A stretch of DNA of 61,255 nt, filler included, from Dugesia japonica (Eukaryota): NCBI GenBank assembly GCA_001938525.1. It is 5 parts of 5 records of this genome, joined end to end, with 100 filler letters (N's around TTAATTAATTAA, not from the genome) between each part and the next. Parts side by side here need not be neighbours in the genome. Positions count along the whole stretch, not along the records: positions 33,040 to 49,589 come from MQRL01647636.1; 4 more parts are not named here. The stretch is one strand, 5' to 3'. Shown piece by piece: positions 10,967 through 57,150 of this stretch. Every line of letters starts with the position of its first letter. Within the stretch, counting starts at the first letter, position 1. The position numbers and the translations under genes are program-made. Under the pieces are notes generated by a model, which saw nothing but the letters and a program-made list of their open reading frames with translations, was not told where the DNA came from and made no database searches.

Positions 10967-11502
10967 TTCGAAGATAAAGTAAGGCTTTGAAAAGACTATG
11001 GACTTAATACTTTTTATATTCAAATTCAGTTTTTTTGTTCAATTTATTGTAATGAAATTTTATAAAGCCATTTTGTTTTTAAAAATAAAATTAGACAGTG
11101 TGATTTATATTTTAATTTAATTTATAAGTTTTTAATACATATTTATATTTGACTTTAATTTCACTGTTTTTTAAATCAAATTCTTTTTATGATATCCTTA
11201 AAATATCTATATCACAAGATCTAAACAAATCAAATCAATATTCAAATGAATGGTTACATTTATTTTATTCATAAGGATATGATTAATCGAATTTTTAAAT
11301 TTATACATATAAGACATTTACCAGAGTTTTCCAAAAAATAAACGTCCCTCTTGAACTAATCACTGGAATTTTAAAACGTCATGGAATGAAAAAATTTTCA
11401 TCAAATTGTAAATGATGATGAATTAATGCTTGAATTATAATAATTATATTTCTTTCTTTTAAATTAATTGCTAGTTTATCAAAAATCATTCTATCATACA
11501 CA

Positions 11503-11874
11503 GGTGCCATCTATAAAGTATGTCAAGCTCAGAATGGAGGAGAAAAAGTCTAAGAAAGTGTGACTTTGTGATATGGAAGATGGAGGGTAAAAATCATATG
11601 TGACGTCACACATTTTAATTTTTTATCATAAATATAAAACCTGAAATTGACAGTGATGTTTAACATTCTGTTGTGATGGACGTATTCTGACAGAATATGT
11701 CACTAGCGTATAGTATTTTAGATTTCATTTTAATGAGTTGTTAATTTTTCAAAGAATTTTACAGTTACAGAGTGTGACGTACTTTCAAGGGATGGTGTGA
11801 GATATTTGTGTCAAAGTGGAAGGGAGGGAGTAAAAATTGTAAAAAGTGGCGTGACATACTTTGTGGACGGCCTC
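11503..11874. mobile_element. PIF/Harbinger-type MITE
   Basis: TIRs GGTGCCATCTATAAAGTATGTCAAGC / GCGTGACATACTTTGTGGACGGCCTC, with inner inverted GTGTGACGT motifs; this TIR style is typical of animal Harbinger MITEs. Confidence 0.7.
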
Positions 11875-12169
11875 ATATTTTGACAGAACAATTTTCATTC
11901 TCTAAAATAATATACATAAAGTGATTGAACAAAACTTTTAGTTTTCGGTTGAATTATTGCAACTTAATAGTACTTTGATTGGAGTATTCAATTGTTTAAA
12001 GACTTCCATCGGTATGTCATTTAAAAGAATCAATTAGAAGTAAAGTAGTATGATTAATCAAGGGTTTTAAACTTTCCAAAATTTTAATTTCAACAAAATC
12101 GTTTGTCAATTTTACGCTTTTTTTTATCAGTCTTTTTAGGAACATTTGAATCAATTTTTTTTACACAAT

Positions 12170-12560
12170 TAATAATATGCAATCTTTTAAACAAATCAAA
12201 TTAATTTTAAAAAAGATTAACTTTTCGATAAATCAATCTAATCCTCAATGTTTCACACAAAACTCTATTCCAACAATCTTTAAAGTAATATTACTGAGCA
12301 TAATATCAGTTGTAAATGAATTATCATTTTAAATAATTTTAAAATTTTGTAAAGAAACTTTACGGATTATTGGGAGAGAGTTAGGTGTGAATCTTTGATG
12401 ATCATATTGATTGATTCAAAAGTTAATGTTTAAGCACGTCTTTGTAAGTCTTTATTGAATGTTTTTAATTAATTTGATTTGTTGAAGACAATAGAAAATT
12501 GATTAAATTATCATAACTTTTTATANAAATGAAATTTAAAATGGATTAAATATTACATCT
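12170..12560 (+). mobile_element. Penelope-like element 3' end with a short inverted copy
   Basis: 12290-12560 is homologous to 19435-19735 (NNFKILxxxxxDYWER...ESLMI...VNV..LLNVFN*); 12175-12215 is an inverted copy of its 3' UTR. Confidence 0.6.
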
Positions 12561-12599
12561 GAACATTATTATTACAAATATAATTATAAAATATATCTA

Positions 12600-12800
12600 G
12601 AAATGGAGTTTAAAACTCTCACCATCAAAAATTAAAACCTATAGATTGCGAGACAAATTTGATGAAACAGAGCCAATATGTAATGCATCAAAGAGTGGTC
12701 GACCAGTAATTATTACAATCCTTGCAAATGGACAGATTGTCTCGGACACATTTAAACAAAGCACCAAAAATTCAAAAAAAAACTGTTACATATGCCCTGT
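12600..12800 (+). mobile_element. Tc1/IS630-like transposase N-terminal HTH remnant
   Basis: TYRLRDKFDETEPICNASKSGRPVIIT..NGQIVSDTFKQSTKNS matches the KF.ETG.V.D...SGRP..T..N...V...F..SP..S pattern. Confidence 0.65.
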
Positions 12801-13644
12801 ATCTTAACCTCTTGAGAGACAATGTCATTTTAAAATTTTTATATTTAATTTGTTTCATTGATCGAATGATTTAGTTTTTTCAACAAGTTCGCCACAATCA
12901 TTATAAATAAGTTTTAATTCTTTCTACTTAAAGAATGAGATAGAAAATTAACAGATGCTGCTGAACTTAACATTCCTAGTGAATCATGAAATCTTATAAC
13001 TTTACGGAAATATAAACTTTTTTTAGTGATAGCAATTCCAAGTTCTTTTTGATCACTTGAATTTAAATTTATTAATTTTCATAATTATTCAACTGTTAAA
13101 TGAAAATCATATTTTAAACCATTATGAAAAACAGGTAATATTTTATTTTATTTTTAACAACCTTTTAATAGTAGGGATTAACATTTTCTATTTTCTATTA
13201 GTATTTTCTATTTTCTATTGTACATTATTAATTGTTCATTTGTATAATATGAACAACATGATATCGTATTGTTTAATANNNNNNNNNNNNNNNNNNNNNN
13301 NNNNNNNNNNNNNNNNNNNNNNNNNNNNNNNNNNNNNNNNNNNNNNNNNNNNNNNATCTATTTACGTACTAATATTCGATAGGAAAGATTCAAAATTTCA
13401 AAAATTTAATCCATTGGTAAGGTTTATTAAATTGATTTTTGAAATAATAAAATTACTTTCAAAAACAAATAAATAAATATTAAATTCCAAATTAAAAAGT
13501 GAAAAGCTTAAAACAAAATCAATAATAATAATAAATCAATAAACAATAATCCAAGAAGAAAGCAATTACTGAAAATTTGAAAATACATTTTTGATTTACG
13601 CTTTTAACTTTTAATTGAGATTTTGAATTTAATTAGTATTATAA

Positions 13645-14231
13645 TTTGAAACAATCACAGGGGATCGGTATGGAGTTCCATTGATGCATTTAAGCCGAGC
13701 ATTAAACGATAAACGGCCATATCATGCGATAAAGTCATTTTGCTACATGACAATGNTCAACCGCATGTTTCGCAAACGGTTAAAACATTCTTGGAAACCC
13801 TCAGATGGGAAGTTTTACACCACCCGCCGTATTCGTCAGATATTGCCCTACAGATTACCACCTGTTTCGTTGCATGGCTCATAGCCTGGCTGACCAGCAT
13901 TTTAAGTCTTACGAGGATACTAAAAACTGACTCGAATCTTGGATCGACTAAAATAGTGAGGATTTTTTAAAACATGGATTCGGTACCTTGCCTGAAAGAT
14001 GGGAAAAAGTATTGACAAGCGGTGGAGAATATTTCCAAGAATGAATTTATATAATAAAGTTTATTTATTTTAGTTATCTCTTCTTAGTTATTTATTCAAA
14101 AANNNNNNNNNNNNNNNNNNNNNNNNNNNNNNNNNNNNNNNNNNNNNNNNNNTAATAAAGTTTATTTATTTTAGTTATCTCTTCTTAGTTATTTATTCAA
14201 AAAAAATCCGGAAACTTATTCACACATGATA
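13645..14231 (+). mobile_element. mariner (Mos1/mauritiana-like) 3' half with right TIR, in the FN3 gene segment
   Basis: TITGDRY..LMHLSRAL.DKRP, LLHDNxQPHV, WEVLHHPPYSSDIA/DYHLFR, LPERWEKV..SGGEYF; TIR-like GGAAACTTATTCACACATGATA. Confidence 0.9.
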
Positions 14232-14299
14232 GTTGAAATAAAAAAAATTACTTGTAAAGATAATTATAATTACAAAAAAATAGAAAACATAAATCTCAC

Positions 14300-17200
14300 T
14301 TTAATGATTTTTCAGAGCTTTCAGCATAGTAAACAACCAAAAATACGATTTCACTCCCATGTTCAATTGGACTGTCCCATTGTAAAGCTATTGAAGTACA
14401 TGTAGCTGATACCACACGTAAATTTTTTGGTGGCGAAGGTGGAGACGAGGTTTTGAAATTTAATTTTATTGGATCACTGCTTAAAGTTATTTTATGTTTA
14501 AAGCATGTTCTTGATTCTTTTGTGAAAAAATTAAAAAATACTATCGATAAAATCAAAAAAAAATACTTTCTTCATATATTTCTTTAAAGTTATTAACACT
14601 TCTTCCTTCTAAAACAGCTGTGTAATTAGTATTTGGTAGAATATCTGTGATATAAACCATTGAATCTAATATGAAATTGCAAACCAAATTGAAAAAATAG
14701 AATAATAACCTTTTGTCGAAATACTGCGAACATCAAAATTATCAGGACTGGATGAATTCCACCAAGTTATTTGAAAATGATCAGGTGGAATAAAATGATG
14801 TTTTTTTTCAGTAACTATCAATTATTAAACCAGATATTACAGGGTTATTCCAAAATATAAATTTTATTATTGCAAATATAAATTTATTTATCAAAAATAT
14901 AAATTTATTTATCATTATTTGTATGTCACAATCACAAATTTAAAAAAAAGTATATTAAAAGTATAAAGTCAATGAAAATACATATATTGAAGAAATATGC
15001 ATATTGAAATCCTTAAGTGAATTCCTATCTGGCCAGAATTCCTGCAGCAATAAATTTTTGGCGTGATCAAATATTCACACAAAGTTACCTTTATAGTAAC
15101 AATAATATAGTAATAATATTATCCAATCAAAATCAGGAGAAAAAATTTAATATAAAAAAAATCTTTATTTACCTAAAATATAATAAATCATTCACAACTC
15201 CTGAAGTAGATCAAATCGAAAATTTGGGAAAAAATAAAAATTTTTTGAAATTTTGGAAATACTCATAAAAATTTAAGAAAAACATAAACATTTTTTATCT
15301 AAGCCTTAGTTTATTTTCGTGATTTTAAAAATATTTAATTTTATAACTATCAAATAATTTGGATAAAAATTTCATAATTATCAAAAAGAATAAAATTAAA
15401 TAAAAAATACAAAATAAAGATTATACAAGTTAAAATGTAACAAGAAAATAATAAATATATTTATGAATGAATGTATGAAAATTTTCTTAATTGGTGTATT
15501 TAAATATTTTTTGGAATATTTTATCATTCTTTCGTATGAAATATTAGAAATTTATTGGAAATCCCATATAATATTCTTTTATCATATTTAAACAAAGAAT
15601 TATTTCTTTAAATACATAATATAATAAATCAATAAACACACCATTTATATAAATAAATTGAAATTATAAGCATTAAAAATTAGGTTTATTTGTTTGCTTC
15701 ATTTAAATCAATTAGAATAAGACTTTCGATTTATTAAAACTTTATTAAAACTCAAATAATTCTTCTTGAAAATTATTCTTGCCTTTCTGAACGTAACTTC
15801 GAAAATTGCATTATGCAATTTATATTTTTAAATAATAATGAACTTAAACAAATTTATTATATTTATTAAAAATATATTTTGCAATTATAAAACTTTCATA
15901 TATAAAATAATTTAAAAATAATACTAATTATGAAATTATTTCAAAAAAATTAAACTGATAAAATTTTGTATAAAATACTTTTCACTAAATATTTACATTT
16001 AAAAACTTTTGTAAGTAAAGATTTTATAAATCTCTATAATTAAATTTTAAATTTACATTTATAAATTTATGCTAATAAACATTGATTTTAGTAAAAACTT
16101 TATTGTATTAAATTTTAAAAAAATTACACATTTCTAATAATAATTCAGAATTTTTTTAATAATTCATCGTGTTGTTCTTACATCTTAAATATTTCAACAA
16201 TTTCGTTTTTGTTCCAAGCTTCACCTTTTTTTCTTCAGAAAAATTTGTTCGTCTTCTCATCGAAATAGTATATTGTATCACCTTTCCATAGAACATCTTT
16301 CATCATATACTTTATTAAAATATCTTGTTGCCTTTTATTATCTCGATTATTTGTTTAATGATTCTGTTTTCACTTTTTCGTCTTTCATGCTCTCGAGCAT
16401 TCTGGCAACTTGCTCGTTTATTTATATTTGTATAATAATCTACCATACGGAGTCCTTTTCTAATACACCTTAAACAACTGACTTTATTACAATTCCATCT
16501 TAAATGCTGTTCTGATCCACATGCATAACATGTTTTCTTTACTGAGCAATATCTGCTAACAAATTTTCTAATTAAAACAAAGCGTTGCAATGGCTGGTGA
16601 ACGACTTTGACGCAACGTGATTTGTGATCGGGATTGGGAATAGCAAAGTCTATTAATTTCAATAATTTAATTAAGATTTCTACAAATAAATTACCAAATT
16701 TCTACTAAAATAATAATTAATCAAATTCGTTTTTAAATAAAGAATTCAAGTGATAACTCGCCCAAATCCTTATGGTTTCATAGATTTAATGAAGGCGATA
16801 CCAGTCTGGAAGACAGTCGGTCTTGATAAATGAAGCTTTGTTGCAAAGTATTCAACAAAGACCAGACACCAGCACTCGCATACTGGCTACTCAACTTGGA
16901 ACGTCTCAATCAACCATTGTGCGTTACCTTCACGAACTTGGTTTTGCAAAAAAGAAACCCAGATTTGTTTGCCATGCCCTTTCTGATCAACAAGCACAAA
17001 GGAGAGAAGAAATTTGCAAGAAATTGTTGAATAAAGATGACAGGTTCTAGAGACGAATCATAACTGGTGATGAAAAGTGAATATATCTCAGAAATCCTAT
17101 TATCAAAGGGCAGTGGCTTCAGCCAGGTCAGAAGGCATCGTCGTTAACTAAAAAGGGAAGATTCGAACACAAGGTGATGTTATCCATATGGTGGAATTTT

Positions 17201-18835
17201 GAGGGTCCTGTATTATGGGAGCTAATTCTAGAAGGCTGGGCTGTAGATGGAAACCTATATGCTGAACAATTGGAACGACTTTGTCTTCTGGCCACTCGTT
17301 ATGCAGCTTTAATCAATAAAAAACGGATATTTCTGCAGCATGATAATGCTCCAGTCCATAACTCTAAAGTGGTAAAGTCTAAGTTAGAAGAGCTCGATGT
17401 TATCGAACTACTACCTCATCCAGCTTATAGCCCAGACTTAGCCCCATCAGATTATTACTTATTACGATCAATGAGTCATTTTCTGATTGGCAAGAAATTT
17501 AATTCAGTAGCAGATGTCGAAAGTGAAGTCCTTGAGTTTGATAGATAAAAATTTGATGTTTTTATGACTTTTTTTCTATATATTTTTAGTTTAAAGTGTT
17601 CGGGAACTTTTGACTCAACCTAGTATTAAAACAATAATTCTACAACGATTTAATGCTATAATTATTTCCATCATTGATAATGAATATCAAAATAGTTTAT
17701 TGTTTATGTAATTAATGAAAATACCAATTTTTATGTTTAATTCCGCTTTTAATAAAATGGATATTTTAATATCGAATAAAGCATTAAACAAGTATAAAAT
17801 AAAATTTCATATTTTGACTCACTTTTATTCCAAACCAAAACAGCACCGAAACCATTGACAGATTCTACCTCAAATTTGGTAGGGGCACTAACTAATCCTG
17901 TATAGTGAATCACTATTTTCGAACTTGGAGTATTGTTATTATCTGGTATGAAAACATTTTTTTCAATTGAAAACATATATGGATTATTTTTATGTATTAT
18001 CAAATAAATAAAATAACATTAATATTGGTAAGAAAAGGAATTCAAAAGAAAATTTGAGTTTTAAATAAGAATTACGTGAATAAGGTCTTTTTTATATGAT
18101 ATCTAAGAAAATATTTTAAGTTATGAACCANNNNNNNNNNNNNNNNNNNNNNNNNNNNNNNNNNNNNNNNNNNNNNNNNNNNNNNNNNNNNNNNNNNNNN
18201 NNNNNNNNNNNAAAAAAAAATCGAATTAACTGTTTAATTAATTATTATAGTAATGATAAAAATAGCAGAACTTATGAAATAATTTTTCAGATTTTTAAAT
18301 ACCAATATTAAATTATACAAATATTTAATTTACCATTTATATTTGTTATTGTAATTAATTGCAATTCAACACGACTGCCCAACATGACATCTTTAATCCA
18401 TAAACTATTCACACTACTTGGAATCATGTTACTTCCATAAACAAATCCATTTTTCAAAATTCTATATCCGATTACGTGATAATTATCAGTCTCTTCTGGA
18501 GAATCCCAATTCAATAAAATACCTTTGGAATTCATTGCTTCAATGTGTAAAACAGCTGCTTCTGGTGGCTTAAATCCAGAAATTAGAATCGGAACTGACA
18601 AATTAGAATGTGAATAACAATAAACTGCATTTTCTTCATTCTATCATAGACATCATAGACTAAATAAAATATTCAAATATAATTTACTGTAATTGAACCG
18701 GCAACAGAAAAAATTTTGATTTCGTGACTGATATCATATTCGAGATTTTGAAATACGAAATTATATTTCTCATTTTTTGGAAAGGTTGACGAGTCTGCGG
18801 TAATATCCGTATGCCAAACATCATCCATGAAAATT
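14300..18835 (-). CDS. Fibronectin type III repeat protein (internal exons 18835-18688, 18640-18334, 17942-17823, 14814-14710, 14665-14567, 14516-14300)
   Basis: All GT..AG junctions are phase-compatible and give one open frame: ..KPPEAAVLHIEAMNSKGILLNWDSP..VIGYRILKNG..APTKFEVESVNGFGAVLVWNK..ITDILPNTNYTAVLEG..PPSPPKNLRVVSATCTSIALQWDSP. Start and stop exons not located. Confidence 0.88.
15199..15345 (+). repeat. Hammerhead-headed repeat (putative Penelope-derived), copy 1
   Basis: CCTGAAGTAGATCAAATCGAAAATTTGG...GCCTTAGTTTATTTTCGTGATTTT is shared with 21925-22085. Confidence 0.6.
16315..16662 (-). CDS. Zinc-knuckle (CCHC) ORF, gag-like, probably decayed, inside an FN3 intron
   Basis: CYACGSEQHLRWNC is a perfect CX2CX4HX4C; it is followed by a degenerate second knuckle CLRCIRKGLRMVDY. 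Confidence 0.55.
   Translation of the reverse strand: MKLIDFAIPNPDHKSRCVKVVHQPLQRFVLIRKFVSRYCSVKKTCYACGSEQHLRWNCNKVSCLRCIRKGLRMVDYYTNINKRASCQNAREHERRKSENRIIKQIIEIIKGNKIF
16745..17625 (+). mobile_element. mariner transposase pseudogene with right TIR, inside an FN3 intron
   Basis: RFNEGDTSLED, HTH STRILATQLGTSQSTIVRYLH, RIITGDEK*I, KVMLSIWW, HDNAPVH, LPHPAYSPDLAPSDY; TIR GGGAACTTTTGACTCAACCTAG followed by TA. Confidence 0.93.
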
Positions 18836-37661: not shown

Positions 37662-38168
37662 TATGTCAGCACGGGAACACTTTGACTTTTTTTTTAAATT
37701 TCTCAACCAATACTTGTCGCATGGTCATGAAAATAACATTCGATTTAGAATGAAATGTTAAACATATTTTTTATAAAATTTGCTCTAAAGATATGCTTGC
37801 TTCAAAGATAATTTTATAGGGTTTGCTGTATGAAGGACTTTCGTTCAAGAAATAATATATTATTAATTATAAATTATAAATACAATTAAATTAATAATAT
37901 TTTTTAAAATATTTTCATACTATTCAACTCAGAATTAAAATCTAAAGATAGTTTAGATATGGTTTACTATAGAAAAATGCGTGGTTCTAGAAATAATATA
38001 CAATTATAAAATTAATTATATTTTTTAAATGTAATTGAAGTAATAATTTTCAAAATATTTTTAGACCAATAAATTCAGAATTAAAAATTCTATAGGAATA
38101 TAATTTTATTTTTCTCAAAACATTTGCTTCTCTCAGAAAGATCTGTGGTTTGATATTTCTATATACTA

Positions 38169-38580
38169 TGTGTGTTGAGATGAAATAACTGTGTTGTGTT
38201 GAGTTGATTTAAAACTATTTATCTGTGTTGAATTGATTTAAAACTATTTATCTGTGTTGAGTTGAAATATTCGTGTTGTGTTGAGTTGATAGTAGTAATA
38301 ATAATATTAAATAATAATTATAATAACAGTAACTTTAATAATAATAATAAATATATGATTAGATCAATTACACATCACAACACAGATAAATATAATGAAG
38401 ACAGCACAACAGAGATAAATACTTTTAAGTCAACACAGCACGCTTATTTAACTCAACACAGATAAATAGTTTTAACTCAACATAGCACGCTTATTTAACT
38501 CAACACGGATAAATAATTTGATTAAAACACAATACAGATAAATTAATTTATGTTGTTTAGAATATACATGTGTTGAGTAA
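38169..38580. repeat. Inverted minisatellite arrays around an (AAT)n tract
   Basis: TGTGTTGAGTTGATTTAAAACTATTTATC units at 38169-38290 are mirrored by AACTCAACACAGATAAATAGTTTT units at 38370-38545; a partial second copy lies at 45505-45620. Confidence 0.8.
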
Positions 38581-39044
38581 TAATTAATAATAATAGTTAT
38601 AATAAATATTAATTAATTAATTAAAATTTAAAATTTGAAATTAATTTAAACCTATTTACACTGATAAATAAATAGTAAATCTTTTAACAATAATGAACAG
38701 AAAAAAAGGATATAAAGTAAAAATTTAAACTCAAGTCAAATTTGAACACTTAAATACTGTTTATCCTATAAAATAATAAACCTTACACTTATAAAATAAA
38801 ATCTTACTGATAAAATAACAAAACTTTACATTAAAAAAATAACAAAATAAACACGTAATTAAAATAACAATAATTTATTTAACACATAAATATCTGCTGA
38901 TTGTATTCTATGGCTTGTATTTCGGTTGGATGATATTGGTTCTATAAAATAAAGACAATAAATCACTAGAATAATAATAAATAAATAATTTACTTTAATT
39001 GGCTGATTCAATCGGAAACACTGAGACAAAGTACTATGTTGCAT

Positions 39045-41776
39045 GTAATGTGTGGTGCTCATATGGTTTGCTTGTGTTCTTATCTATCCACACTCTTTTA
39101 TCGTCATATATTATATTATTTGTAAGTTCTAAGTTTAAACTCATAAACTATATACCTGATGGTTTATAGTCCGTATTCTGAATTGATTAACTAACAATCT
39201 CTTATTTTCGTTGTAACAATCGCGATATGACTAGTGTTAACTTGCTATCTTTTATTCCTTTAGCTTTCATTGATTCCTTTTCACTAAGAAGGCTATAGCA
39301 TTTTGGTCTAAGAAAAACTCATTCAACATATTTCTTACCTTTATTCTCATCTTTAAATCTGCCTACTACCAAATTCCACTCGTTACTGAACATTAGTCAT
39401 AAGTCTTTTAGCTGAGTTAGACAACCTTAAATTTAACCTTTTCTTTAAATTTTCCACTATTATTCAAGACTATTAGACTATTATTCAACAGCCTATACTA
39501 GTTTTTATCCAAATTCGATCTACTCTCTGATCGTAATTTTGTGTTCTCTTCAATGTAATTCTTAAAGATATAAACTTGATTGAATTTCACAGCCCAATGT
39601 ATTTTTGTAACATGTAAACATATTTGTAGTAGCCTCCAGTGTACCACATAATTTAGTTTTGGATAATGTATCAGCAATAAATTATTCACCTTTGATCCAG
39701 GAGAATTTTGATGTTCAGCTGCCACAGGTAAATCACTCAAATAATCATGTAATTCGTTCGGAATTACTATATCCACTTCCATAGAAAAACCATAAGATAG
39801 CGAATCCAAATCCAATGTTCTGCATTCTTCTAATATTGCATCCAATCCAAAATATATCCACTTAAAGTTTTTATAGGGCAATTTTTGACTTAAACCCTAC
39901 CCATATAAGTTACTAATATCAATATATAGAAGCTTGGTGTTTTCATTACTTTCGACATAATGTTTGTTAACATATGTAGGCCCTCCTCTAATTCCCCCTT
40001 CGAATAATGTATACATGTAATTATCCGTTAATAATTCTATTGGTTCTTTAAGAGTCATCAATGCAGATGCCCACGACATGCCTGGTATACCAATAGTTCC
40101 AACTTATTGTGAGCTATAGACTTGGCTCAAAATTTTTGAATGAAATCTGCCAACAAAAATACATCAAGCTTAAGATAAACCATCATACAATCCAGCATAC
40201 AATTAACAATCTCTCACATTCGAACCACTTTAACATTATGTTCTTCATTTACTCCATCCTATCTCGGTGGCATTGACGTTGTTTCTATTGAAACATCTAA
40301 GCTTGTGGCAAAATTATATGGAAAAATCCTTTTTGATTTTTTTTATGATCATTATTAAACTCTTTTTTTGTCGAAGGAGTTGACTTGACGGTAGCAACTA
40401 ACGATGAATTAATGAACTGGTACGAGTCAATGAATTTTTTTGTTGTTTTCTATTCATGACCAGTAAGACATGAGAATTTCTCAGTTGTTAAAAAATACAT
40501 GAGATATTCCATTTTGGGAAGTGTAATGGTAATTGTCACTGGTTTTAAGCAACAAGAGATTATTGTTATGTCCGTCTTCTACTTTTGACCGGTGAATATA
40601 CAAGTTAGAATGCTTCATGGCTATATCATCATTATCTTCAACTAATTGTGACTTCCAGAAGAAGACATTGATGACATATCCTGGATTTTGATTCTCAAAT
40701 TTCTGGAAATTGACCAGCTTTATAGGCATATCCAACTCATCAAATATCCACTCTGAAATATAATCTTTATATATTGTGACTTGATATCGATTTTCTTTAA
40801 TTTCATCTTGCTTAAAAACTGCAAGAATGTTATAAATAAAACACAAGTTGACATTATTCTTAATATTAACTATAGCTTGCTTTCTGACAAGGTTTTTAGG
40901 AGTAGGAATATGACTACTTCCAGAAAGTTTACTAATATTACTGACCTTTGTAATTTTAAAGTTTATTTCTAGAATACGGCTAAGAATCCAGTTACTACCT
41001 AATTCACACGTTACTACAATCTTCTCATTTAAATTTCTTATACCTTCCTGGAAAAATGTATCCCTCAATTTGATATCATACAGGTTTTAATATCTACGTC
41101 ACAAATAAATTCTACACTGATTCCAAATTGAATCTTTACTTCCTTTAGTTCTTTAATTATTTTAACAATCTCTTTATTAATACTTCTGACAATACTATTT
41201 CCCTACTAATACGATGAGATACATCTAACTTAAGAATCTGATGAGACCTATACAAATCTGTTTCAATAGTAAATTCATCTAATGATCCACAAACTTGTAC
41301 TCCTCTTAAAAACTCTTCCTCTTCTTCAAATTATTTTTCGAAAATTTTGTCGTCTTCATCTATTCTATCATAATTCCATCCATTTTTATCCAAATAGTTC
41401 TTAAAAACTATATCTTCTTCTTCATCACCCATTTCTACTTTAACATTGTTTTCCACATTTTCAGTAATATTAACTATTTATTTATCAATTACTAATGGTT
41501 CATCAATTACTAATGGTTCTTATCTTACTCTCTTAGTTAGTGGAGCACCTATCAGTCTTTGGAAGTATGTATTTTAATAATAGTCGTTTTTTAATCGTTT
41601 CGAATTGATTAATGTCGTGTGAATGCTTCTTATAAAAACACTTAATGTTTTGCATGTAGGACATTTGTGGTACTTTGTCCCAGAGAATTTCATACCTTAA
41701 AATGTCTCCATAGTCTTACGGAATTCTGCTTTGTGGACATAACTCGCACAATAAGGTTTATATTGTGTGCATGTTG
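39045..41776 (-). pseudogene. Protein-primed DNA polymerase B (Polinton/Maverick-type), most complete copy, with internal deletions
   Basis: GSNWILSRI, SGSSHIPTPKNL..KQAIVNIKN..NLCFIY, FIDSYQFINSSL, FPYNF, YLKLDVFLLAD, EGGIRGG, LLYIDISNLYG (motif A), YRLLNNSL (motif B), GRFKDE, FLRPKCYS, KAKGI, DDKRVWIDKNTSKPY; motif C region deleted. Confidence 0.9.
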
Positions 41777-42744
41777 CTAAAGAAAAAAGCATTTTTATAT
41801 AAGGTAAAACATAATATTAAATAAAATTTATTAAATGTGATATATTACTATTAAAGATTATAAAAATATTATTATTAAAAATGTGATAATTATTATCAAA
41901 ATAAAATTAAATATAAAAGTCATTATTTTTTATGTATATTATTATTATTTTTATTATTATTATGGTTATTAAGGATTAGAAAAGAAAAGAAAAGGTTAGA
42001 AAATGTAATGACCTAATTGGATACAGTGATAAAAAATGGCATCATTACATAATGCATTAGAATTCAATTTATTATAATCTACAATAGTTTTAAAATTGTA
42101 ATTTATTTTTTTAACTAATCTTTTTATTTTATTTTATTATTTAAAATATTCAAAAAGCAAATAAGGGAGCATGTTGTTGAAGAATTGACAAATGTTACTA
42201 ATTGAACTAATGGATAAGCATAAACGGCTGTGTAATGATCACAACAGAACAATCTAAGTATCAGTATAAGTCTAATCAAAATAAAAAAGATACGAAAAAA
42301 TATTCATTTCAAAATAAAATTTTGTTATAAATATTTTTATCAAAAGTGTTATTATGATAAATATTATTATTATTATTATTATGCAAATAAGATTCTTATT
42401 ATCAAAAATAAATATTATCATTATTATCAAAATAATAATTACTATTATTATCATAAAAATATGATTAATATTGATAAAAAGGAAATTATTATTATTTATA
42501 ATATTATTTTTAAATATGATTATTATTATCAAACGTATTCATATAATCATCAAAGGTTTCTCAATTATCAAATATTATTAAAAATAAAGTTATCAAAATA
42601 TACTTATTATTATCAATTATCACAATATAGTTATCAAAAAGACTTGAAAAATCTATAAAACTAAATATGACACATAAAAACTAATAAAATGAAAAGAAAT
42701 CATTAAAATTAAATTCGTCACATTTAAAATTAATAAAAACTAAC

Positions 42745-43027
42745 GTGGTGTGTTTATCTCCAACATATCTAAGGAAGACATTTGAGCATCATTTCTATTC
42801 ATTATCTCTATATTAGCAAAATTTATAGGCATCAAAGTAGTGTCATTTCTATTCATAATCGTCATATTCTCATTAAAATTCATTTGGATAGCTTCATCAT
42901 TTCTAGTCATAATCTATATATAATTATAAAATTTATAAATAAAATATGAGTAAATTACGTTGTTATTCTTAATCTCGTTCCTAACTGTCTTCATTGTTGA
43001 ATTGTTGATATTATTTTTGTTGATCAT
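42745..43027 (-). CDS. Spliced N/M-rich repeat exons (43027-42959, 42913-42745), phase-compatible with the acceptor at 41776 upstream of pPolB
   Basis: MINKNNINNSTMKTVRNEIKNNN|IMTRND..IMNRND..IMNRND..INTP|; canonical GT..AG introns, a 5'-UTR intron (GTAAGT..ACAG), and TATATAAA at ~43184. Confidence 0.55.
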
Positions 43028-45929
43028 TGTACTGTAATATAAATTTAAAAACAATAAAAAATAGTTAACAAAAACTTACGTTTATTTGTAAATTGACAAA
43101 GTGAAATAATTTAAAACGTAATTAATTTTATTCAAATGTGTGTAAATTAGTCAGAATGTATGATATTACATAATCATTTATATACGAATCACTATGTAGA
43201 AACTCCCCATGCTAAATATCAAGACTTCTCCATCTCATACATTAATATAAAGTCTGCTCAAAAATAAGTTTTAATTTCCCATGCAAAAATAAATTTTTCG
43301 ACATGAAATATTTTTTTGAATTTCTCACCAGAAAAAAATATCAAGACTCCCCTCTTCTCGGTATAAAAAATATTAAAAAATAAATCTTCCTTGTTTAAAA
43401 ATACTCAAAAAATATTGAAAAATACATTATTTTTAGAAAAATATCATTACTTTCTTCTAAATCATTATTTTAAGCAAAATACAGCATTTTTAACCAAAAT
43501 AAAGATTTCAAAAGATTATGACGTCATACATGACTGCCCCAAAAATTTAAAATAAATCTTAAAAAATCTGATAATCAATTTTATTTCCACACATACCTTT
43601 GAACACCTCCCCAAAATTTTTTTTAACACACTTCTACAACTTACAAAAATTAACCAATCAAATTCAAGCCCTTAAACTACAAAATCTTCTCCATCACATT
43701 ACCTCTCAAACAACACATCAACCAACAAATCCCAATAACCACATACAAACCTACAGCCTCCCAACAAACACCCCCACAATAACTCATACGACCGATCTGT
43801 TGCGCTACCACACTTCTAGCAAAATCTATCCATCCAACTCCATAAGTCCTTTAGACAATATATAGAACAAAATTTTGTCCAACAACAACGAAATCTTAAA
43901 AACTCCAAAAAAATATTTTCAAAATCTCCAGCTCCTCCTCGAGTCCAAAACAATTCTTTAACACACACACAAACTCAACTTGACATACTTTTTTAAAAAG
44001 CACCTTAACAACTTAAACTCACATTTATAATAAATATAAATATAAATAATAATTAATAAATAATGGGTAATGTAATAAAAGAATTAACTAGAATACAGAT
44101 CTGAAAGAAGCAAAGGCCTTCAAAAGATTTAAAGAGTCTTCGGCTCCAAAATAATATAAATCTTATTAATAGTGTTAACCTCAATTAGCTGCTTGTAATG
44201 TGATGTTAGATAGGTTTCTTGATGAAGTTGAAAATGATAATAAGTTGGTTACAAAGTCACCTATTACATTTTTATTATTAATAAATGACTACTAATAAAG
44301 TTTCTTATGATGTGGTAGCTTTGGTCCCCGATGAAGATACACTTCCAATATGAAGAAATAATTCTAGTAAATTTAAACATAAAATATTACCACCTCAATT
44401 TTGATTATTAATTATTGGTTATTAATTAATTATTAATAATTAATTATGAATTAATTATTAATTAATTATGAAACCAATATTTTCATAATAAACCCAATAC
44501 TTTCAATTATGAGACCATAACTTTATACATTAAATCTAATATTTTTAATTATGAGATCTGTATTTTATTAATTGTATTAATAATAATTGACACTTGGATA
44601 AAAAATAACAATTAAATAACAAATCTTTGAAATAAACCAATAAATATACAAACCTTTTTTATATAAAACGATTGATTATATTTCTTAGCTTTAATCTTGC
44701 ACATCAGTCACATCTATTTGAACATTGGTTTGTATCATATAAGTACGTTTTGATTATTATATGAACATTGATTGTCAAGTACTGCTTGATTTTGTACCAG
44801 TATACTTCTGGATCCCAATATACTGATTCATTCTTAAGATTTGGGAGCTGTTCGTTTAATATTTCGAGAATTATTTATAAAAACAATGATTAATTCAATT
44901 ACATTAATTATTACTTTTTTCTAATACATACTTATCTTCAATAAATTCTTCTATTTCTTTTCCTTCAATTGTTTCAATAACTTTATCATCTGAAATTTCT
45001 TCAGAATCGTCATATTCAGTATAATCATCATTATTCTATTTTAAAACCATATCATCAGAACATGTTGACTATAACCATTTCTTTTCTTCATCATTATAAT
45101 TCGACCATGTTTCCTGTTGTACTTCGAATTTTTCTTGAGTGAAATAATTCATTTTCTGAAATAATACTAATTTAATTTAGTTTATATTCGTTCCATATAA
45201 TTAAATTTAATTAATAGAAGTTTATCTTGTTAATTACAGAAAAACTATTAAATAAACTAGAGTAAGTAATGTAATACTTTTATAATTTAATTTAAATGAA
45301 ACTTTATTCGTTTTGTTTAAATTCTCTGTTTGCATGAACTTAAAAATATTCAAATTTATTTGAACAGTAATAATAAAATAATAATAATAAAGAATAATAA
45401 TAATCAAACCTTTTGTAATGCCACTCTTCTAATTGCTATCTTTAGACTCATTGTTTATGTATAAAATTTAGGCCTAAATAATAATAATAATAATAATAAT
45501 GATAATATATGATTAGATCAATTACCCAACACAAGACAAATAAATAAATTTTACTCAACACATCACATATATTTTTATATATTTAGGTTGTTTTGAATAT
45601 ACATGTATTGAGTTATAAATCATAAATAATAATAATTAAAATAGGAAGAAGAAATAATATTTAATAATTAATTAATTAATAAAAATTTTGAAATTATTTT
45701 AAATTAATTTTTTTTGTAATTGTAAAGCTATTTAAGTAATAAAATTACTATTATAAAATTTTTAAAACATTGAAATAACTATATTTACATTAAAATAATT
45801 TAGTTTTTATTAAAATAATTCAAAAGTCATACATATAATTTAAATTACAAAATTTATTTCAAATCATATTGTATCTTTCATTGATCATAATTGGTCTGGA
45901 TTCTATTAACAGTCTAAAATTAAATACAA

Positions 45930-46253
45930 TAATTATAAAACTGTAGGTATAAAATTTAGGTAGACTTAATAAATCTAATGCTATTGGTAGTAATGTTGCT
46001 ATAAAGTCACCATCTTGTTTATACAAAACGTCCTTCATTAATCTGTTGTTCTTAGTCTTTCCAAGTGCTAACAATGTCTTTTTATGTTTTTTAAAAGTTT
46101 TTGATCTCTCTTCGATTAAAATTACATTACCACGAACAATTATTATAATAATCTCTAACAAATGATGGAAATGATTGCAGAATTTTTATTCTCATCTTAG
46201 TTGGTGATTTTGTCAATGCTTTAAAAAATGAAAGACTTTTTTCTACATTCATT
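45930..46253 (-). pseudogene. Small basic Polinton/Maverick-type protein, copy 2
   Basis: MNVEKSLSFFKALTKSPTKMRIKILQSFPSF/LEIIIIIVRGNVIL..TFKKHKKTLLAL..KDVLYKQDGDFIATLLPIALDLL; paralog of 4680-4988. Confidence 0.55.
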
Positions 46254-46844
46254 TTCAGTTAAAAAGATTTAATAAAATTGTTTATACCATATTCAATGTC
46301 TATTGTTTAATTTTCCTCAGAGGAGTTACTTGATGTTTTATAGTTTTTATGTGACTTTATCGTTTACCCTTATTTAGTTATATCTAGCTATATTTACTCC
46401 TATTTAGCCATATTTTCTCTATTTTCTATTAGGTTTTAATGCATAATTTCCCTTCATATTTTCATAGACCTCACTTCAATAAAAGTGTATTGTATTAATT
46501 AAAGAAGACAATAAGACTAAGTGAGATCTAATATGATATGCTTATTTTCTAAACTAATATAACTATTTCAGTATATTTTTATCATCTGATTATCCTTTTG
46601 CTTCTTTGCTTGCTCTTTGGTTCCCTGATTGCACATTGCCTTCTTTGCTTGCTCATTAGTTTTCACGGGTTACTTTTTCTTTTAAATATCTAATATTTAC
46701 ATTATTAAAGAATAATAGTTCAATATAAAAAATATTGATCTCATCATTGAAAATATTAGTTTCAATAGACAAAATTAAAGTTTCATCATTAAAAACATCG
46801 AATTTATCGATTATATAATTTCTATCCATAGTCATTTAATTTGC

Positions 46845-49689: not shown

Positions 49690-49889
49690 AAACCATTTTC
49701 ATTAATTGAAACAAAAAAAGTTTAATTATTAAAACAAAAAAGTCCATTAATTAAAACAAAAATAAACAATTAAAAACAAATTCCCTCCTAAAAAAAAGGT
49801 AAAAAAAGATTAAAAAGAAGATAAAAAAGATAAAAATAAAGATTAAAAAAAGTGATCTGATCTGATAACTGCTTAAAGAAATTGCCACC

Positions 49890-51250
49890 ATGAGCTACTA
49901 TCCCCCTACTGCCGTTGAACGCATATACCATGATACTATCCTTATTCCTTTTCCACCTTTCTCAAAAATAAAANNNNNNNNNNNNNNNNNNNNNNNNNNN
50001 NNNNNNNNNNNNNNNNNNNNNNNNNNNNNNNNNNNNNNCGTTCTTACAGCTGAGGATATTCAAGTCATGTCAACGTTTGTAGATATTAAAGTAGTTTTAG
50101 ACATGTATATGAGTCCTCAAGTAGTTGAAATTACTATACAAAATTATTAAGGAATGACATTGCTCGATAAGAAAGTATGTGAACGTGAAAAAATCAAACA
50201 TTTTAACCAACAAACAACTAGTTATGACAATACCTCAATTATCAACTTACCAGACGAGTACCCAATTATCAGTAAAGCTCGACTGATGCTCTACGGAAAG
50301 ATAGTCATTGGTTCTGACATAGGAAAAAAATTATACAATCTGTATATAGATTATAGTTACATTATTCGATTTAGAGACCTGGCAGAAGACAAATGACATA
50401 AAGAATATGTGAAAAATAACAAATTCGTTAAACAAAGATTCGACACTCTTGCCCTAGCAGTAATCCGTTCTATACAATTCCAATCATCCATGCGGAAGCT
50501 ATTGAATGATATAAAAGCGACCAATATTCCGACTACCCGTGTAAAGATTCAATGGATACGAAAATTTTATATGTTCCTAATGGAAAATGGTAAATGGCAA
50601 GACACCATACATTCAACAGAAAAATATCACTTCGATCCACAGATGGATATTTTAGAACCTGCTGAAATCGTCCCAAAAAGATAATTGGACACACCAAATG
50701 CTTCCATATGAAAAATAGGTTTCGATATGAGTCAAACATATACCGTTGATCTGGATGACGAGGAAAACAATGAATGCAATGACCCAGAAGACGATAAAAC
50801 CGAGCACATATCAGAAATTGCTGAAATAGCGAAACCGATGTGATACATTTGGATTTTGAAAACGATGGAGAAGTGATATGTAAAAATAATCGCTAGAAGA
50901 AGTCCGCAAAAACCAAATATTCATACCTTATTATTCCGACGCAGAACATTCTAGCGAGTCAGAATTCGGACCCGAACCTGATATATACATACGTGACATC
51001 GAGGATGGCGATACCTCATTTGACTTATCTAGTTTTGCTAAGCACAAACGTAAAAATACCACAATATTAATGCCTAAGAATTTAGATAGGGATATCATCC
51101 TCACCTTTAGTAATAAAAAGGTACAAGTGCGAGATGTCAATAACAAACTTTAATTTGTCAATCAAAATACCCTATATGAAAACATCACTTTCACCGACGG
51201 CAAAAACGAAATATCCCTCTGCACTAATCCCAAAAGAAACAATAATATAT
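49890..51250 (+). pseudogene. Long intronless orphan ORF broken by stops and frameshifts, with an acidic C-terminal part
   Basis: ORFs at 49890, 50154 and 50409 share one frame separated by single stops; start context GCCACCATG; continues as DLDDEENNE.. and SSESEFGPEPDIY.. Confidence 0.5.
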
Positions 51251-51322
51251 TATCTTTATGTATATTATTTACTTGTATATATTATTCTGCTAATACATGA
51301 TTAATGAATTATTTTTGTAGAT

Positions 51323-51970
51323 ATGGATTCTATCCCAACTGAACAACACATTTTTCTACATAACACATGCAAAATCCTATTATATGACAGACAACGCACC
51401 CTAAAATACCCCCTAACATATGGGTGGAACGACGTCGCCAAAATTATTTATTATACAGATGAGACACTTTCTTGCCCCATTTGTTTTGATTACCCTTTAC
51501 TCTCCAGAATTATCACAATTATTATTTTTGTCTAAATTATATCAACAAAACACTCAGTTTTTCAACTAGATCTACGATCTATTGTCCAGTATGTCGCTCA
51601 TGCATAGTAGATACATTTATCCCTAAGCGTGTATGTTTTATTACACAAAACACCCCAGCAATAGGTTACATCCTCACCTTCCTTCTCAACGTCAAAGTCC
51701 CATATAACAACAGCATTAAAATAGCCCACCATTTACCTCTCTTCCATCAAAGTGACATTCCCGAATTTGGCGATCTTGTTGGAAAATACAACAATATGAC
51801 AATTCAAAGAGATACGGTATCCATCAGCAATATACACATTGACCTGCACACCATAAAAGCCCTCAGTTACCCTAGAAAGGAAAAGGACGACATCGTCATA
51901 CATTTAAATGCGGAGATCAAAAGATTTAACAACCGTATCCGAATCCAAGAGCACTTCGAATGCATAAGTA
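51323..51970 (+). pseudogene. RNF10/Mag2-like RING-finger E3 ligase pseudogene
   Basis: EQHIFLHNTCKILL..WNDVAKI..CPICFDYPLLSRI../CPVCRSCI..PKRV.F..IG..LTFLL follows the RNF10 layout (FLQAN.QF, W..V, CPICL.PP, CP.C, V, GD.IT); the central CGH..C..C is deleted. Confidence 0.6.
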
Positions 51971-54379
51971 AGTGAATGAATAAGTAATGAATAAGTAAAC
52001 AAGCCACACTCTGTATACACTTAAAAAAAAGTTATTCGGAAGGAGGAATCTGAGAAAAAATATTAGCACAAATCGCAGAACACAGTAGAAAGACTAAAGG
52101 AGATCCTGCAAAAATACTATCAAAACATAGATCTTCTCTAGCCCTACTTTACCTTACCCAAACATTCCTAACATTGAAAGAGATTTCAATCCCTGTATTT
52201 ATAAAGCGAACCTTGTACCAATAGCATTTCCATTTGGCCTTCATGATATCAGCTGCCCCTACTTTACTATTTCTAACTCAAGATGCAGGAGCATCTTTTC
52301 TTAAAGAAGAACATTTGTTGGGAAACATTACATGCAAAATATCACACGCAAACATAACATTCAAAAAACAAATGAACACATACACATACACAAACAAACA
52401 TAAACAGCGAAGCTCATCACTAAATGCCCCAGAACAATCCAGTTAATCAATAATCTGATTCAATCATTTTATCCCCGAACAATCTAGTCAATAATTCAGC
52501 ATCTGACAATTTACTAAATATGATTTGATATAACTTTCAAATTATTTTGTTTATTTAGCAATTCTGATTTGACAATTTTATCTATGTGGAAAGCATGTGT
52601 ATATAGATATAATCATAATTTTATTCTATTTTTATTAAGGACATAGATATTATAATTATAATATCTTAGTAATTATTTATATTTTTGATTTCTTTAATAA
52701 AAGACTTATCCAAAAAGTCAATCAATTTTGATTTCTAAATAAATATTCTCATAGAAGAAAATTAAATAAACAATTGAATCAATTTTGATTTTTACTAAAG
52801 AAGTCAGAGAAAAATCAAATAAATATAATGGTATTTGTTTTAAAGAAAGAAATTAAATATATATACTGTAAATTTATTTATTTTCCGGAAAATTTTTATG
52901 TAATTTTATTTATTTTTTAGAAAAAATTAATGGAATTTTATTTATTTTACTGATATGTATGTACGTGTAATTTTGGTATAATTAGAGAGTGATTTTTCAT
53001 TCAAATCACCCACTTTTTAAATTATATCTCAAGTGAAGTTGAGGTTTACAGAGCCAACACTTCCGGAATTAAAATAATAACGTGTAATTTCTAATTTTAA
53101 CATGTACAACTTTGATTTGCTAATATAATTTTAAAAGTAAATTTTTCATTATTTGAATAGCTGACTATATGGCGTATTTATATTCATATTTTTCATATAT
53201 ATTAACGATATTAAGGTTAAATAAGAAAGAACATATAAGTATAATATATCTAATTCGGATTGTTTAAGGATTTATCAAAAGAGACTATTAAACTCACATA
53301 ATTGCTGATTTACATTTACAACAATCACCAAAGCATCTGAACAATATTATTTTATTATCATTAAAAGTATTATATTTTTTATTTTCATAATGTATATCAA
53401 AATATTTATTTCTATTATTATTTTCAATATTTAATCTACCAAACGAAATTTACTTGGCATTATTAGTATCACTATTATTATTATTTTATTCTTCTTATTA
53501 TTGTAGTATGATTCATTTTTGATTTGTTAAAACGATAAATAAATTTTATCTCTTTATTTTAGTCCATTTTGTTTAACAAAATTAATAAATATTATGAATA
53601 GTTATAGTAATAATAAATAATATGCTTTTATATATATAATTTTTAATAATAGCAATAAAATCAATAATATTATCCATAAACCAGAACATTTAAAATAGTT
53701 ATGATAATGTAATAATACATTTTTTAATATACATTACGAATAATTATTTCTTGTTATTAATAACTAAATGTTCTATTAACCTTTTAAATTCTTATTGTAA
53801 ATAATATATTACGTTCTTGAAATTATTTATTTTTCTTGCAGTGTTCCAAAACCAATTGTGAACAAATAAAAAAACATAACGATAATATAAATAATAATAA
53901 ATGGCAGCATTCAGTAATGGTTAATACATACTAATGGTTAAACATACTAATCTGCATTATTCAATCTAAAGTATACTAAGTAGAAATAATAAAGTATAGT
54001 TGGGTTGATAAGGCAATATCATCGTCATGTGACGATAATGATAATCAACAACTTATATTAAAAATTATTTTAGTATTGGCAGGTTGGTTGATTTACCATC
54101 ATCAATTCGCTATAAACAAAATGATAATGGTGAACAGCAATCTGCTAAAAATATGAAACGAAAAATTATTCAAGAAAAGGATAGTAATGGACGCTATGAA
54201 AAATGGAGAAGAGTAACAACAGTTGGTGAAAATTATTTACGTAAATCAGATTTTAAAGTTGCTTATGTCAGTCTGCAATTCAAGGCTGAGAATCTCAAAA
54301 TGAAATCATTGCACATTTAGGAAAATGTGAAATATCGGGTGGAAGAAGACGCCAAGAAATTTAAAAACTACAAAGAACA

Positions 54380-55660
54380 GTTTTGAATACATGCAGAATT
54401 GGGGAAAAATGATGATGATGAAGAGGAAATTAAGGAATAGTCGTGGTATTACAAAGCAGTAGAATATTCGGAGGATTTCTTGACAAAAGTAACAGCCAAT
54501 GTAAATTGAGAAATTGTGACCTTTTCTGAGCTCAGTAGTGACTGGAAGATTATAAGAATATTGGAGCTCAGGTTTATTTTAGTCAAATTCTTACCGGTAA
54601 TTTACTTATCCGATCCATCATTTATTCGGAGTTCGGAATCGTTACAACAAAGCAAGGCCATAGTGAATGTCAAGAAATTATGACAATAAAGGCTTTATTT
54701 ATAGTATCTTGGCGGTACTTAAATATAATATAGTCAAGGATCATTGTAATCGTCCGCAAAAATATGATGGCTTTTTAAATGAATTTGTGTACGATGAGGA
54801 GAAGAAATGCCGATGAAGCTCATAAATATCTCGGAATTTGAGCGGAAAAACGAATTATCAATAACTGTTTTCAAATATTAAGAAGTACTTGATGTAGAAG
54901 AAGACAGTAAAATCGTATACAAAAATCCACATGTTGATGTGATTTTTCAAACAAAAAAACCCACATGGCTTATCATTACGGGTGTGGCAAATTTGGATAG
55001 ATTATTAAATTTAAATGACCTGGCTATAAAATGTCAAATTAAAAGAAAATAGTGTCCAAAATGTCTGTATGGATTCAAGACATAGACTACATTCAATAGA
55101 CATGTAGCTCTATGCAGCCACATTTCAGAAAAGACTGCACTGTACACAATGCTAGACGAAAATGAGTTGAAATTCAAGGATTTCGGAAAAGCCATGATTC
55201 CAGGATTTGTAATATATGCAGATATTGAAGCTGTCCTGGTCCAACAGATGATGGTCAAGTGAAGCATGTGCCAATAGTTGTAGGGCTAATATTAATTTCA
55301 TTACTGGACGAAGCAAGGAATTGTGAGTATTATTCATTTTCTGGAAAAAATTGTATGGTGGAATTTTTGGGTTGTATTGATAAATTATCAGAAGATGTAG
55401 TTACACCGTAATATAAGAAAAATATGTGTGCAGATTTGAAAATAACAATAGGCAAACAGAATTCATTTATGAAATGCACACATTGCTACTTATGTGGAGA
55501 CAAAAGCAAGAAACTTGTTCGAGATCACGATCATTTCTCAGAAAACTATATTGGAGCTGCATGCAATCAATGCAATTTATCCAAGAAGATCAGAATGGAA
55601 TTGCCTGTTGTATTTCATAACTTTGAGGGTTATGATTCACATCATATAATCAAAAGCATC
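54380..55660 (+). pseudogene. Protein-primed DNA polymerase B (Polinton/Maverick-type), N-terminal/exonuclease part with endonuclease VII-like Zn insert
   Basis: SDWKIIRI, KAIVNVK, FIYSILAVL, CPKCL..F...H...C, FVIYADIEAVL (Exo I), CYLC..VRDHDH...YIGAACNQCNL, VVFHNFEGYDSHHII (Exo II). Confidence 0.9.
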
Positions 55661-56977
55661 CCACAATCACTTTGTCTACGTCGGGGAGATGATCCAGTGC
55701 TGGCACATCCATCTACTAACTATATTTCTGGAATGTATGATTTTACAAATATGAATAAAACTATCAGACATTATAACAAGTTGCGACTTTTGTCAAAAAC
55801 ATAAAACATTTGTATGATAACAATGAGCTCAGAATACATACAATTCCTAAAATCATAGACAAGATGCCTAAAAAATGCTGGACGATTGAATCAGAAAAGT
55901 TGAAGTTGATAGTGATGACCTTTAAATAGCTGACAGGCAATAAAGTGATTACATGAAAGCTGGTGGTGGCCGATGTCTTATTTTCTAATTTTGTGCATAT
56001 GATATTATAAGCTGGTCTCTTTTGGATTGTAGTATGTAAATTATGTGTAAATTATATTATATTATTATATTATTAGTTTATTTTAATAATTAGTTATTTA
56101 GTCTATAAATGTTTAATGATTTTATTATAATCCTGTTTAAAATTTTAGTTAATTACTGTCTTAAATGTCCTAAAATGTTAGTAATCAACTGAATTTATAG
56201 ATGCTTGGTGTCTATCAATGTATAACTTTGAAGTGTTATTTGTTGAAATTCGTATGTCAGCCGAAATTTATATTAATCGTAAAACTGCTTTATGATTTTG
56301 GAAATTTGAACATTTTTCTATAAAACTGTTTATATAATGTTCAGTAATGATCACTAAAAGCTTTCCTGATTATACATTAGACAAATTTATGTTTAATCAT
56401 TGAATTTCATCATAATCTATAACCAGTTCATTATCCACTTCATCTAGCTTTGACATTAATCCAGTAATTGCATCAAAACTAATATCAATGTTTTTGTATG
56501 AATCGTTTAATTAAATCTAAATAAATGTTGGAACTTTAATTAATTTCCTCTTAGATTCAAATATTTATTTAAAATGATTGAACTTAATTTATTATTTTTT
56601 TACATAACCTGTCCTGAGTGAGATTGTCAGTCTTTTATAAATTTCATGTACTGTAGTTAGCATATCCCAAACATTCTTGAAGGCTTTCAAACATTTCAAA
56701 TTCTCTTTATTTAGTTTGTTCTTAACTCATCATTACGCTAAATAATATTAATTAATATAACATCAAAATAATAAATTTACAATTCATTTCATTTACAATT
56801 TGGACATTTTAAATCATTTTTTATTTAAACAATGTTTAAATACTTAAAATTTAGGAATCAACAAATCCAACATATCAAGCTTTAAATTCTCGCAAGATTT
56901 ATATTGATACCATAGATAACTGTCCAAAAAAAGTTCTTTCATATTTTGTTGAATTAAAAGTTCTATATTAGATCTAG

Positions 56978-57150
56978 ATGCTGGAACCTACGTCAACAGA
57001 TTTAGTTTGTATAACGGACACATCTGTCGTGGTGTATGTCGTCAATAAATATTGTTCAGTCATATATACTGTTCCTGAAACGTTTAATACAGCTCCTTTG
57101 GGATTTTTGACTCCAAAAGATGCACCTTTCAAAGAAAAAATTGATCAAAT
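56978..57150 (+). CDS. Exon of an ionotropic glutamate receptor/IR-family gene (S2 ligand-binding lobe)
   Basis: AG|..DLVCITDTSVVVYVVNKYCSVIYTVPETFNTAPLGFLTPKDAPFKEKIDQ|GTAAG; pattern and phase-2 junction fit the iGluR S2 C-terminal part. Confidence 0.7.

Follow-up and report, generated by a model that had tools for sequence, protein, structure and literature searches.

A candidate spliced leader upstream of a decayed Polinton polymerase in Dugesia japonica and predicted introns in the polymerase genes of its relatives

Intact vertebrate Mavericks (Polintons) carry intronless open reading frames (ORFs), and "no introns were observed" in them according to the accessible text of the report (PMC8097293). 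A locus of Dugesia japonica (assembly GCA_001938525.1) raises the question of whether a Polinton's gene for its protein-primed DNA polymerase of family B (pPolB) can receive its 5' end from spliced exons. The stretch of DNA analysed (the window) is 61,255 nt long and consists of five joined parts; the exons in question and the polymerase relic behind them (copy 2) lie in the part taken from MQRL01647636.1 (33,040-49,589). The window is a gapped, AT-rich draft, with GC contents mostly between 0.15 and 0.34, and holds three related pPolB relics, at 6.2-6.9 kb, 39.0-41.8 kb (copy 2) and 54.0-55.8 kb (copy 3). A first-pass annotation had described copy 2 as apparently expressed through spliceosomal 5' exons and had proposed that its lineage acquired introns of the host's style. 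We think it probable, with some reserve, that a spliced leader fed the polymerase of copy 2 through a predicted junction at 42744-41777; the claim that introns belong to the lineage as a whole is much stronger than the claim for this one junction.

All the signals annotated for the leader, including the phase-1 donor and acceptor, were found on the minus strand in their expected places, give or take a base. A TATA box candidate, TATATAAA (43184-43177), lies 157 nt ahead of an ATG at 43027, and the interval contains a predicted 48-nt intron of the 5' untranslated region (43079-43032), recognised by its GT-AG signals (GTAAGT..CAG). The first coding exon (43031-42959) is Asn-rich and provides 23 codons from this ATG. 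It is separated by a predicted 45-nt phase-0 intron, again with GT-AG signals and with a GC content of 0.09 (42958-42914), from a second exon of 169 nt (42913-42745), which is free of stops, is built of three 54-nt units corresponding to the 18-residue repeat previously noted, and ends at a phase-1 donor at 42744. The leader reading frame thus comprises 79 codons with no stop. Steps in GC content mark the exon borders, and exon 2 was free of stops in 0.4% of 5000 shuffles.

The window was searched on both strands for a composite pattern made of a TATA box, a short intron, an ATG, an exon, a second short intron and at least 40 open codons. It occurred once in the whole window and in none of 120 block shuffles, a result that is generous because the pattern was defined after the site was known. 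Judged from these sequence features, the signature of a spliced gene on this dead Polinton copy is real.

Relatives of copy 2 were gathered from P0001, its closest relative, a database protein with 57% identity to the window copy, yielding 150 representatives and 80 metagenome loci. Scans of viral contigs with P0001 and with alignment A1 returned no loci, and a scan with alignment A5 returned 11 distant ones. Aligned with the single-ORF polymerase of the metagenome locus L002, the body of copy 2 (39045..41159, minus strand) falls into six pieces of 37-59% identity, with frame changes and 10 stops; a further 5 stops occur in the 200 codons that follow the acceptor at 41777. Approximately residues 371-609, with Exo I, HNH and Exo II, and 990-1098, with Pol C, are missing (L002 numbering). 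Though decayed and deleted, copy 2 is recognisable as the protein-primed family B polymerase of a Polinton/Maverick. It is a pseudogene, not a working gene, and the description "apparently expressed" is therefore wrong for this copy; since the copy is dead, its value is that of a pointer to its lineage.

The relatives were analysed with an automatic splice-path search, blind to the annotated model, which was run with varying penalties on intron length and compared with 30 shuffles. It was applied to 17 of the 80 loci, namely the top matches with upstream DNA. Twelve of the 17 (L003, L005-L009, L011, L012, L014, L016, L033 and L070) yielded models in which two to five AT-rich GT-AG introns interrupt the 5' portion of pPolB, each model scoring above all 30 shuffles. 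In L002 and L004 one uninterrupted ORF, 1219 and 1298 codons long, respectively, encodes the polymerase. L001 cannot count as intron-free because its contig begins inside the gene, and L013 and L015 were set aside because a GC content of 0.40-0.45 is unsuited to the scoring. The 42 modelled introns have a median length of 46 nt and are distributed as 7, 32 and 3 over phases 0, 1 and 2. When near-duplicates (L007, L008, L012) were dropped together with L013, L015 and the doubtful first introns of L003 and L009, phase 1 was found in 22 of 26 introns and lengths of 40-53 nt in 25 of 26; the binomial p of 1e-7 for the phase bias is overstated because the rows are not independent. The candidates have the features of U2-type spliceosomal introns: GT-AG ends, a T-rich acceptor and a predicted frame that is kept on removal. 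Weighing against these models, the same search produced false introns of mixed phase, 38-110 nt long, in 8 of 10 distant and plainly single-ORF polymerases from IMG/VR. Because it invents introns in such genes, its output alone proves nothing, and homology is the real test.

Homology to L002 places interruptions at the same sites in several relatives. Seven loci (L008, L009, L010, L026, L031, L033, L070) are interrupted by frame changes or by inserts of 14-16 codons containing stops; where the breakpoints were located, they fall at residue ~236, residue ~364 or both. L001, L003-L007 and L011 are continuous there. Segments of 42-44 nt with GT-AG ends coincide with these core breaks in six of the seven loci (none in L010 under the filter used). 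Asn/Gln-rich mini-exons open the gene in L008, L009, L012, L014 and L033, and leader exons are recognisably common to L005, L006, L011 and L016. Nine other ORFs of L004 and L007 had no such intron candidate. Adjacent introns are near copies of each other in L011, L009 and L008 (similarity 59, 55 and 45; pairs from different lineages reach at most 40, n = 329), which points to duplication of an exon together with its intron. Only these three pairs exceed the maximum, so tandem duplication explains some intron gains and not all; the other 28 within-locus pairs, among them the window's two introns (23), score 40 or less. In a 65-row tree with a midpoint root only, the window copy forms a group with P0001 and P0053 (99/95), within a 39-row clade (100/97) that contains every intron-bearing locus. 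Altogether, these comparisons lead us to infer strongly that pPolB introns characterise the lineage, which gained them once it had separated from its single-ORF sisters and partly through tandem duplication of symmetric phase-1 units of exon plus intron. The proposal that this lineage acquired short, host-style introns in its polymerase gene is well supported by the 12 loci and the shared core breaks.

The annotated acceptor at 41777 opens into a Cys-containing segment, followed by an acidic tract and then pPolB, and this order was borne out in the sequence. The Cys segment (41640..41776, minus strand), decayed in the window, aligns with the N-termini of L002-L006, L070, P0037 and P0115, so it is lineage-wide and was not invented by the window copy. 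The "novel N-terminus" of the first-pass annotation thus stands for the 79-codon leader, which has no homologue, but not for the Cys segment, a conserved N-terminal domain of the lineage. Residues C4, C11, H16 and C22, and C43, C46, F57, H61 and H64, are invariant in six of six rows, which suggests two zinc sites. Pfam matches to its C2H2 pattern (C-x2-C..F..H-x2-H) stayed below cut-off (best E 0.012), and the domain had no Pfam family above cut-off, no PDB sequence match and no Atlas match of at least 0.9. A structure model reached a predicted local distance difference test (pLDDT) of 86, with best fold matches at Z 2.3 and E 0.8, values from which neither novelty of the fold nor identity with a known one follows. 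An internal Met at 41711 corresponds to residue 1 of four database relatives (P0001, P0003, P0013, P0077); for these proteins, calls starting at such a Met would be expected if their first half were reached through splicing. In L003, a 44-nt intron with a GC content of 0.07 splits the domain at a place where P0003 and the window are continuous. The domain also occurs outside pPolB: a stand-alone gene in L002 (64-735, plus strand), placed immediately ahead of pPolB and followed by a long A run, encodes the same double Cys/His domain and a probable coiled coil. In copy 2, a variable linker with the acidic tract (41160..41639, minus strand), homologous to P0001 residues up to 178 and carrying several stops, connects the domain to the polymerase body.

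Leader and Cys domain would be joined by a predicted phase-1 intron of 968 nt (42744-41777, minus strand), from the donor at 42744 to an AG ending at 41777. This acceptor has the top score among the 13 located downstream of the donor, and phase 1 is the lineage's usual phase. With long introns unpenalised, the splice-path search returned exactly the annotated model (31.9, against a shuffle maximum of 13.8), as it did with a small length penalty (23.4 against 8.1). When only short introns were allowed, the search started at an in-frame ATG at 41792, 7 codons ahead of the first Cys, and scored 5.7, within the range of the shuffles (maximum 7.7). The TATA-like site nearest to this ATG is just 9 nt upstream, with no other within 300 nt; the lack of a usable TATA for ATG 41792 counts in favour of the junction to 41777. 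In 6 of 10 relatives the TATA spacing is 36-90 nt, which lends weak support, since the motif occurs 2.4 times per kb. One relative, L070, has a 46-nt intron between an ATG and the Cys domain, that is, an acceptor just ahead of the domain as modelled for the window. The size of the host's kinase introns (~42-44 nt) and the place of the window copy in the intron-bearing clade also count in its favour. By these criteria, the leader exons were likely spliced to 41777, and the 968-nt intron may be a formerly short one enlarged by later insertion.

Several observations count against this junction. Nearer acceptors are available inside the proposed intron at 42681, 42661 and 42653 (64, 84 and 92 nt past the donor), and a donor at 41848 is located 72 nt ahead of the acceptor. 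Under a stronger length penalty, the search keeps both leader exons but routes through 42228-42199. A length of 968 nt is far beyond the filtered intron sizes of the relatives, the phase match alone has a one-in-three chance of occurring, and an ATG precedes the first Cys by 2-7 codons in each of the six relatives whose DNA covers the Cys domain, as it does in the window. Leader exon 2 found no match among proteins of 99-2000 residues or of 30-98 residues (weak evidence), nor did exons 1 and 2 find a homologue among the 80 metagenome loci (best E 1.9). Lastly, with 15 stops in ~870 polymerase codons, the chance of 79 clean codons is ~0.26; a stop-free leader beside a decayed polymerase fits neutral decay but also a separate gene.

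A separate gene is indeed the alternative that survives best. The leader exons would then belong to a small spliced gene of their own, either cargo or a captured host fragment, using a near acceptor such as 42681 (~85 codons in total), and the polymerase would begin at ATG 41792 or be reached by way of a 72-nt intron of its own (41848-41777). The near acceptors and the donor at 41848 exist as this explanation needs them, but the three acceptors lead to a stop after 5, 1 and 29 codons, respectively. The relatives' starts 2-7 codons ahead of the first Cys agree with it, as does the distinct same-strand gene directly upstream of pPolB in L002; the short-intron model that begins at ATG 41792, however, is indistinguishable from shuffles, and the failure of any 30-98-residue protein to match exon 2 speaks weakly against a small gene. 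Intron-bearing cargo genes are described for nematode Mavericks in the accessible text of 10.1101/2022.07.12.499685. Six AATAAA sites, common in AT-rich DNA, are present in the interval between leader and polymerase. A GC-richer patch in the same interval (41950-42330, plus strand) has a GT-AG segment of ~60 nt and an ATG (42038); it resembles a decayed spliced gene, had no match in the metagenome loci and, as a possible gene remnant, would also suit a separate gene. On balance we regard this explanation as a serious one, yet rather unlikely.

It is improbable that the leader constitutes the 5' part of a host gene, or of a transcript maintained by the host beside the relic, with splicing into 41777 arising as a secondary exonisation of the dead element. 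Such an origin would account for a clean leader next to a decayed element and for leader introns that match in size those of the host, where two introns of a kinase gene, chosen by eye from candidates as joining coding frames, measure ~42-44 nt; from these we infer an animal host whose minimal introns measure about 45 nt. The leader is nevertheless flanked by two Polinton remnants on its own strand, the polymerase and a small ORF at 45.9-46.3 kb, and no homologue of it was found. An origin of the leader exons and splice sites by chance, in DNA so rich in AT, is scarcely credible, for although short AT-rich GT-AG pairs taken singly are as frequent in shuffles as in the window (31-49 across 10 shuffles, against 49), the full pattern, the stop-free exon 2 and the GC steps at the exon borders all argue otherwise.

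If the leader fed the polymerase, as we favour, a transcript driven by the likely TATA box at 43184 would have lost two short predicted introns and the 968-nt phase-1 intron through host splicing. Its product would have begun with the 79-residue Asn-rich leader, followed by the predicted zinc-binding domain, the acidic linker and the polymerase. A broader reading that joins the window to its relatives is offered tentatively. In it, the polymerase gene of an animal Polinton lineage would be becoming a multi-exon gene in the host's style; host-minimal introns, gained in pPolB only and multiplying as symmetric phase-1 exon-intron cassettes are duplicated in tandem, would build a fast-changing N-terminus (here, the 79-residue repeat leader and a new double zinc-finger domain) and place replication of the element under host splicing control.

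Copy 3 (54045..55804, plus strand) corresponds to the 5' half of a related pPolB, in decayed form; it has an HNH motif and no supported leader. The AG sites that had been pointed out upstream of it do exist, at 53841 and 54073, but nothing ties them to a leader: the Cys motif is absent and no consistent leader model emerged, scores with short introns or with penalties being no higher than the shuffle maxima and unpenalised scores slightly above but dependent on weak sites. Further upstream (49870-52450, plus strand) are several broken GC-richer ORFs, one of them Cys-rich (51490-51975), with no match in Pfam or in the metagenome loci.

The remainder of the element around copy 2 is scant. A remnant of a small Polinton ORF, neighbour of the integrase in L004 and L007, was recognised by its match to these loci at 45859..46260 (minus strand); the same ORF also matches the window at 4.7-5.0 kb. 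Of the rve integrase and this neighbouring ORF, only the latter is among the matches listed for the window, and the window copy yielded no packaging ATPase, adenain protease or major or minor capsid protein. Within 37.5-49.5 kb, copy 2, which is old and rearranged, has no long inverted repeat of high identity on its flanks. A 29/47-nt repeat array with inverted arms, which recurs in part and in direct orientation at a distance of 7.0 kb, flanks the polymerase relic on both sides (38167-38650 and 45478-45703). Mariner and gypsy-like remnants are also present in the window. The host kinase domain (Pfam E 1e-21) lies among gene pieces at 9087-18640 (minus strand), which include exons that we take to be FN3-like; there, 9217-9395 recurs at 9446-9624 on the other side of an N gap, a duplication that probably stems from the assembly. 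A short exon ending at a donor (57002-57150, plus strand) resembles a ligand-binding segment of an ionotropic glutamate receptor, and introns of this host gene may be where the Polinton relics are located.

By gene content L004 and L007 are near-complete Polintons, with pPolB, rve integrase, A32-like ATPase and a TBP-like ORF. In L004, the integrase matches PF00665 (E 1e-12) along with a weak chromodomain match, and the ATPase matches Pox_A32 (E 5e-6). The protease and capsid ORFs of L002, L004 and L007, which gave no informative Pfam match, are presumed to be such from motifs, size and order. The TBP-like protein, encoded at 11333-11806 in L004 (PF00352, E 2e-18) and at 10321-10779 in L007, both on the minus strand, is notable given that these elements seem to rely on TATA promoters. 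In L003, pPolB is preceded on its own strand by the protease-like and small nuclease-like ORFs (1-1030, plus), an order unlike that of L002, L004 and L007.

An intron-bearing pPolB matters for how such elements are counted. Surveys selecting long ORFs (at least 900 residues) would score members with core introns as broken, and those with a leader would be given wrong N-termini. Sisters without introns beside sisters with several offer a compact test case for the origin of spliceosomal introns.

Among known systems, vertebrate and nematode Polintons share with L004 and L007 a pPolB with Exo I-III and Pol A-C, an rve integrase and an A32-like ATPase. They differ in their intronless core genes (for nematodes, the accessible text of 10.1101/2022.07.12.499685 describes core genes without introns and cargo genes with them), whereas pPolB of many sister elements here has predicted spliceosomal introns. 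The intron-free single-ORF core gene, a described trait and not a defining enzyme, would be lacking in the 12 of the 17 relatives with predicted pPolB introns (compare the accessible text of PMC8097293). No spliced pPolB appears in the available portions of PMC12220804, PMC5718144, PMC6431247, PMC7851563 and 10.1101/2024.03.25.586562, and a literature search by title and abstract opening, with subscription papers and Repbase outside its scope, returned no report of spliceosomal introns inherited in the pPolB of an animal Polinton. The adintovirus PolB bears an OTU-like domain at its N-terminus, as far as the available text of 10.1101/2024.03.25.586562 goes; three full polymerases of our set had no Pfam match to OTU. 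In nematode and oomycete pPolB2, an HNH domain lies inside pPolB, and ORFs of at least 900 residues were required in the nematode study (10.1101/2023.08.22.554363, available in part), a filter that would miss members with core introns. A similar HNH (Endonuclease VII-like) insertion interrupts the exonuclease region here, the likeness being one of description and not of sequence comparison with pPolB2; PF02945 is matched in L002, L004 and L007 (above cut-off in L007 only), weakly in copy 3, and is deleted in copy 2. The predicted leader also recalls adenovirus E2B, where splicing joins a small 5' exon to a distant replication gene. The adenovirus polymerase shares the upstream exon of pTP. In HAdV-37 this pTP exon is 9 nt long and lies ~3.3 kb upstream, according to the accessible part of PMC2397415. 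The E2B exon, however, supplies three residues in a non-integrating virus, whereas the Polintons examined here would use several variable mini-exons and minimal, host-sized introns that are polymorphic among sisters. Spliceosomal introns inside Polinton-like elements are also found in dinoflagellate proviruses, where, in the available text of PMC11957031, introners are intron-generating transposon insertions acquired mostly after integration. The introns predicted here occupy homologous sites across diverged elements, and neighbouring ones appear to be duplicates of each other in L011, L009 and L008.

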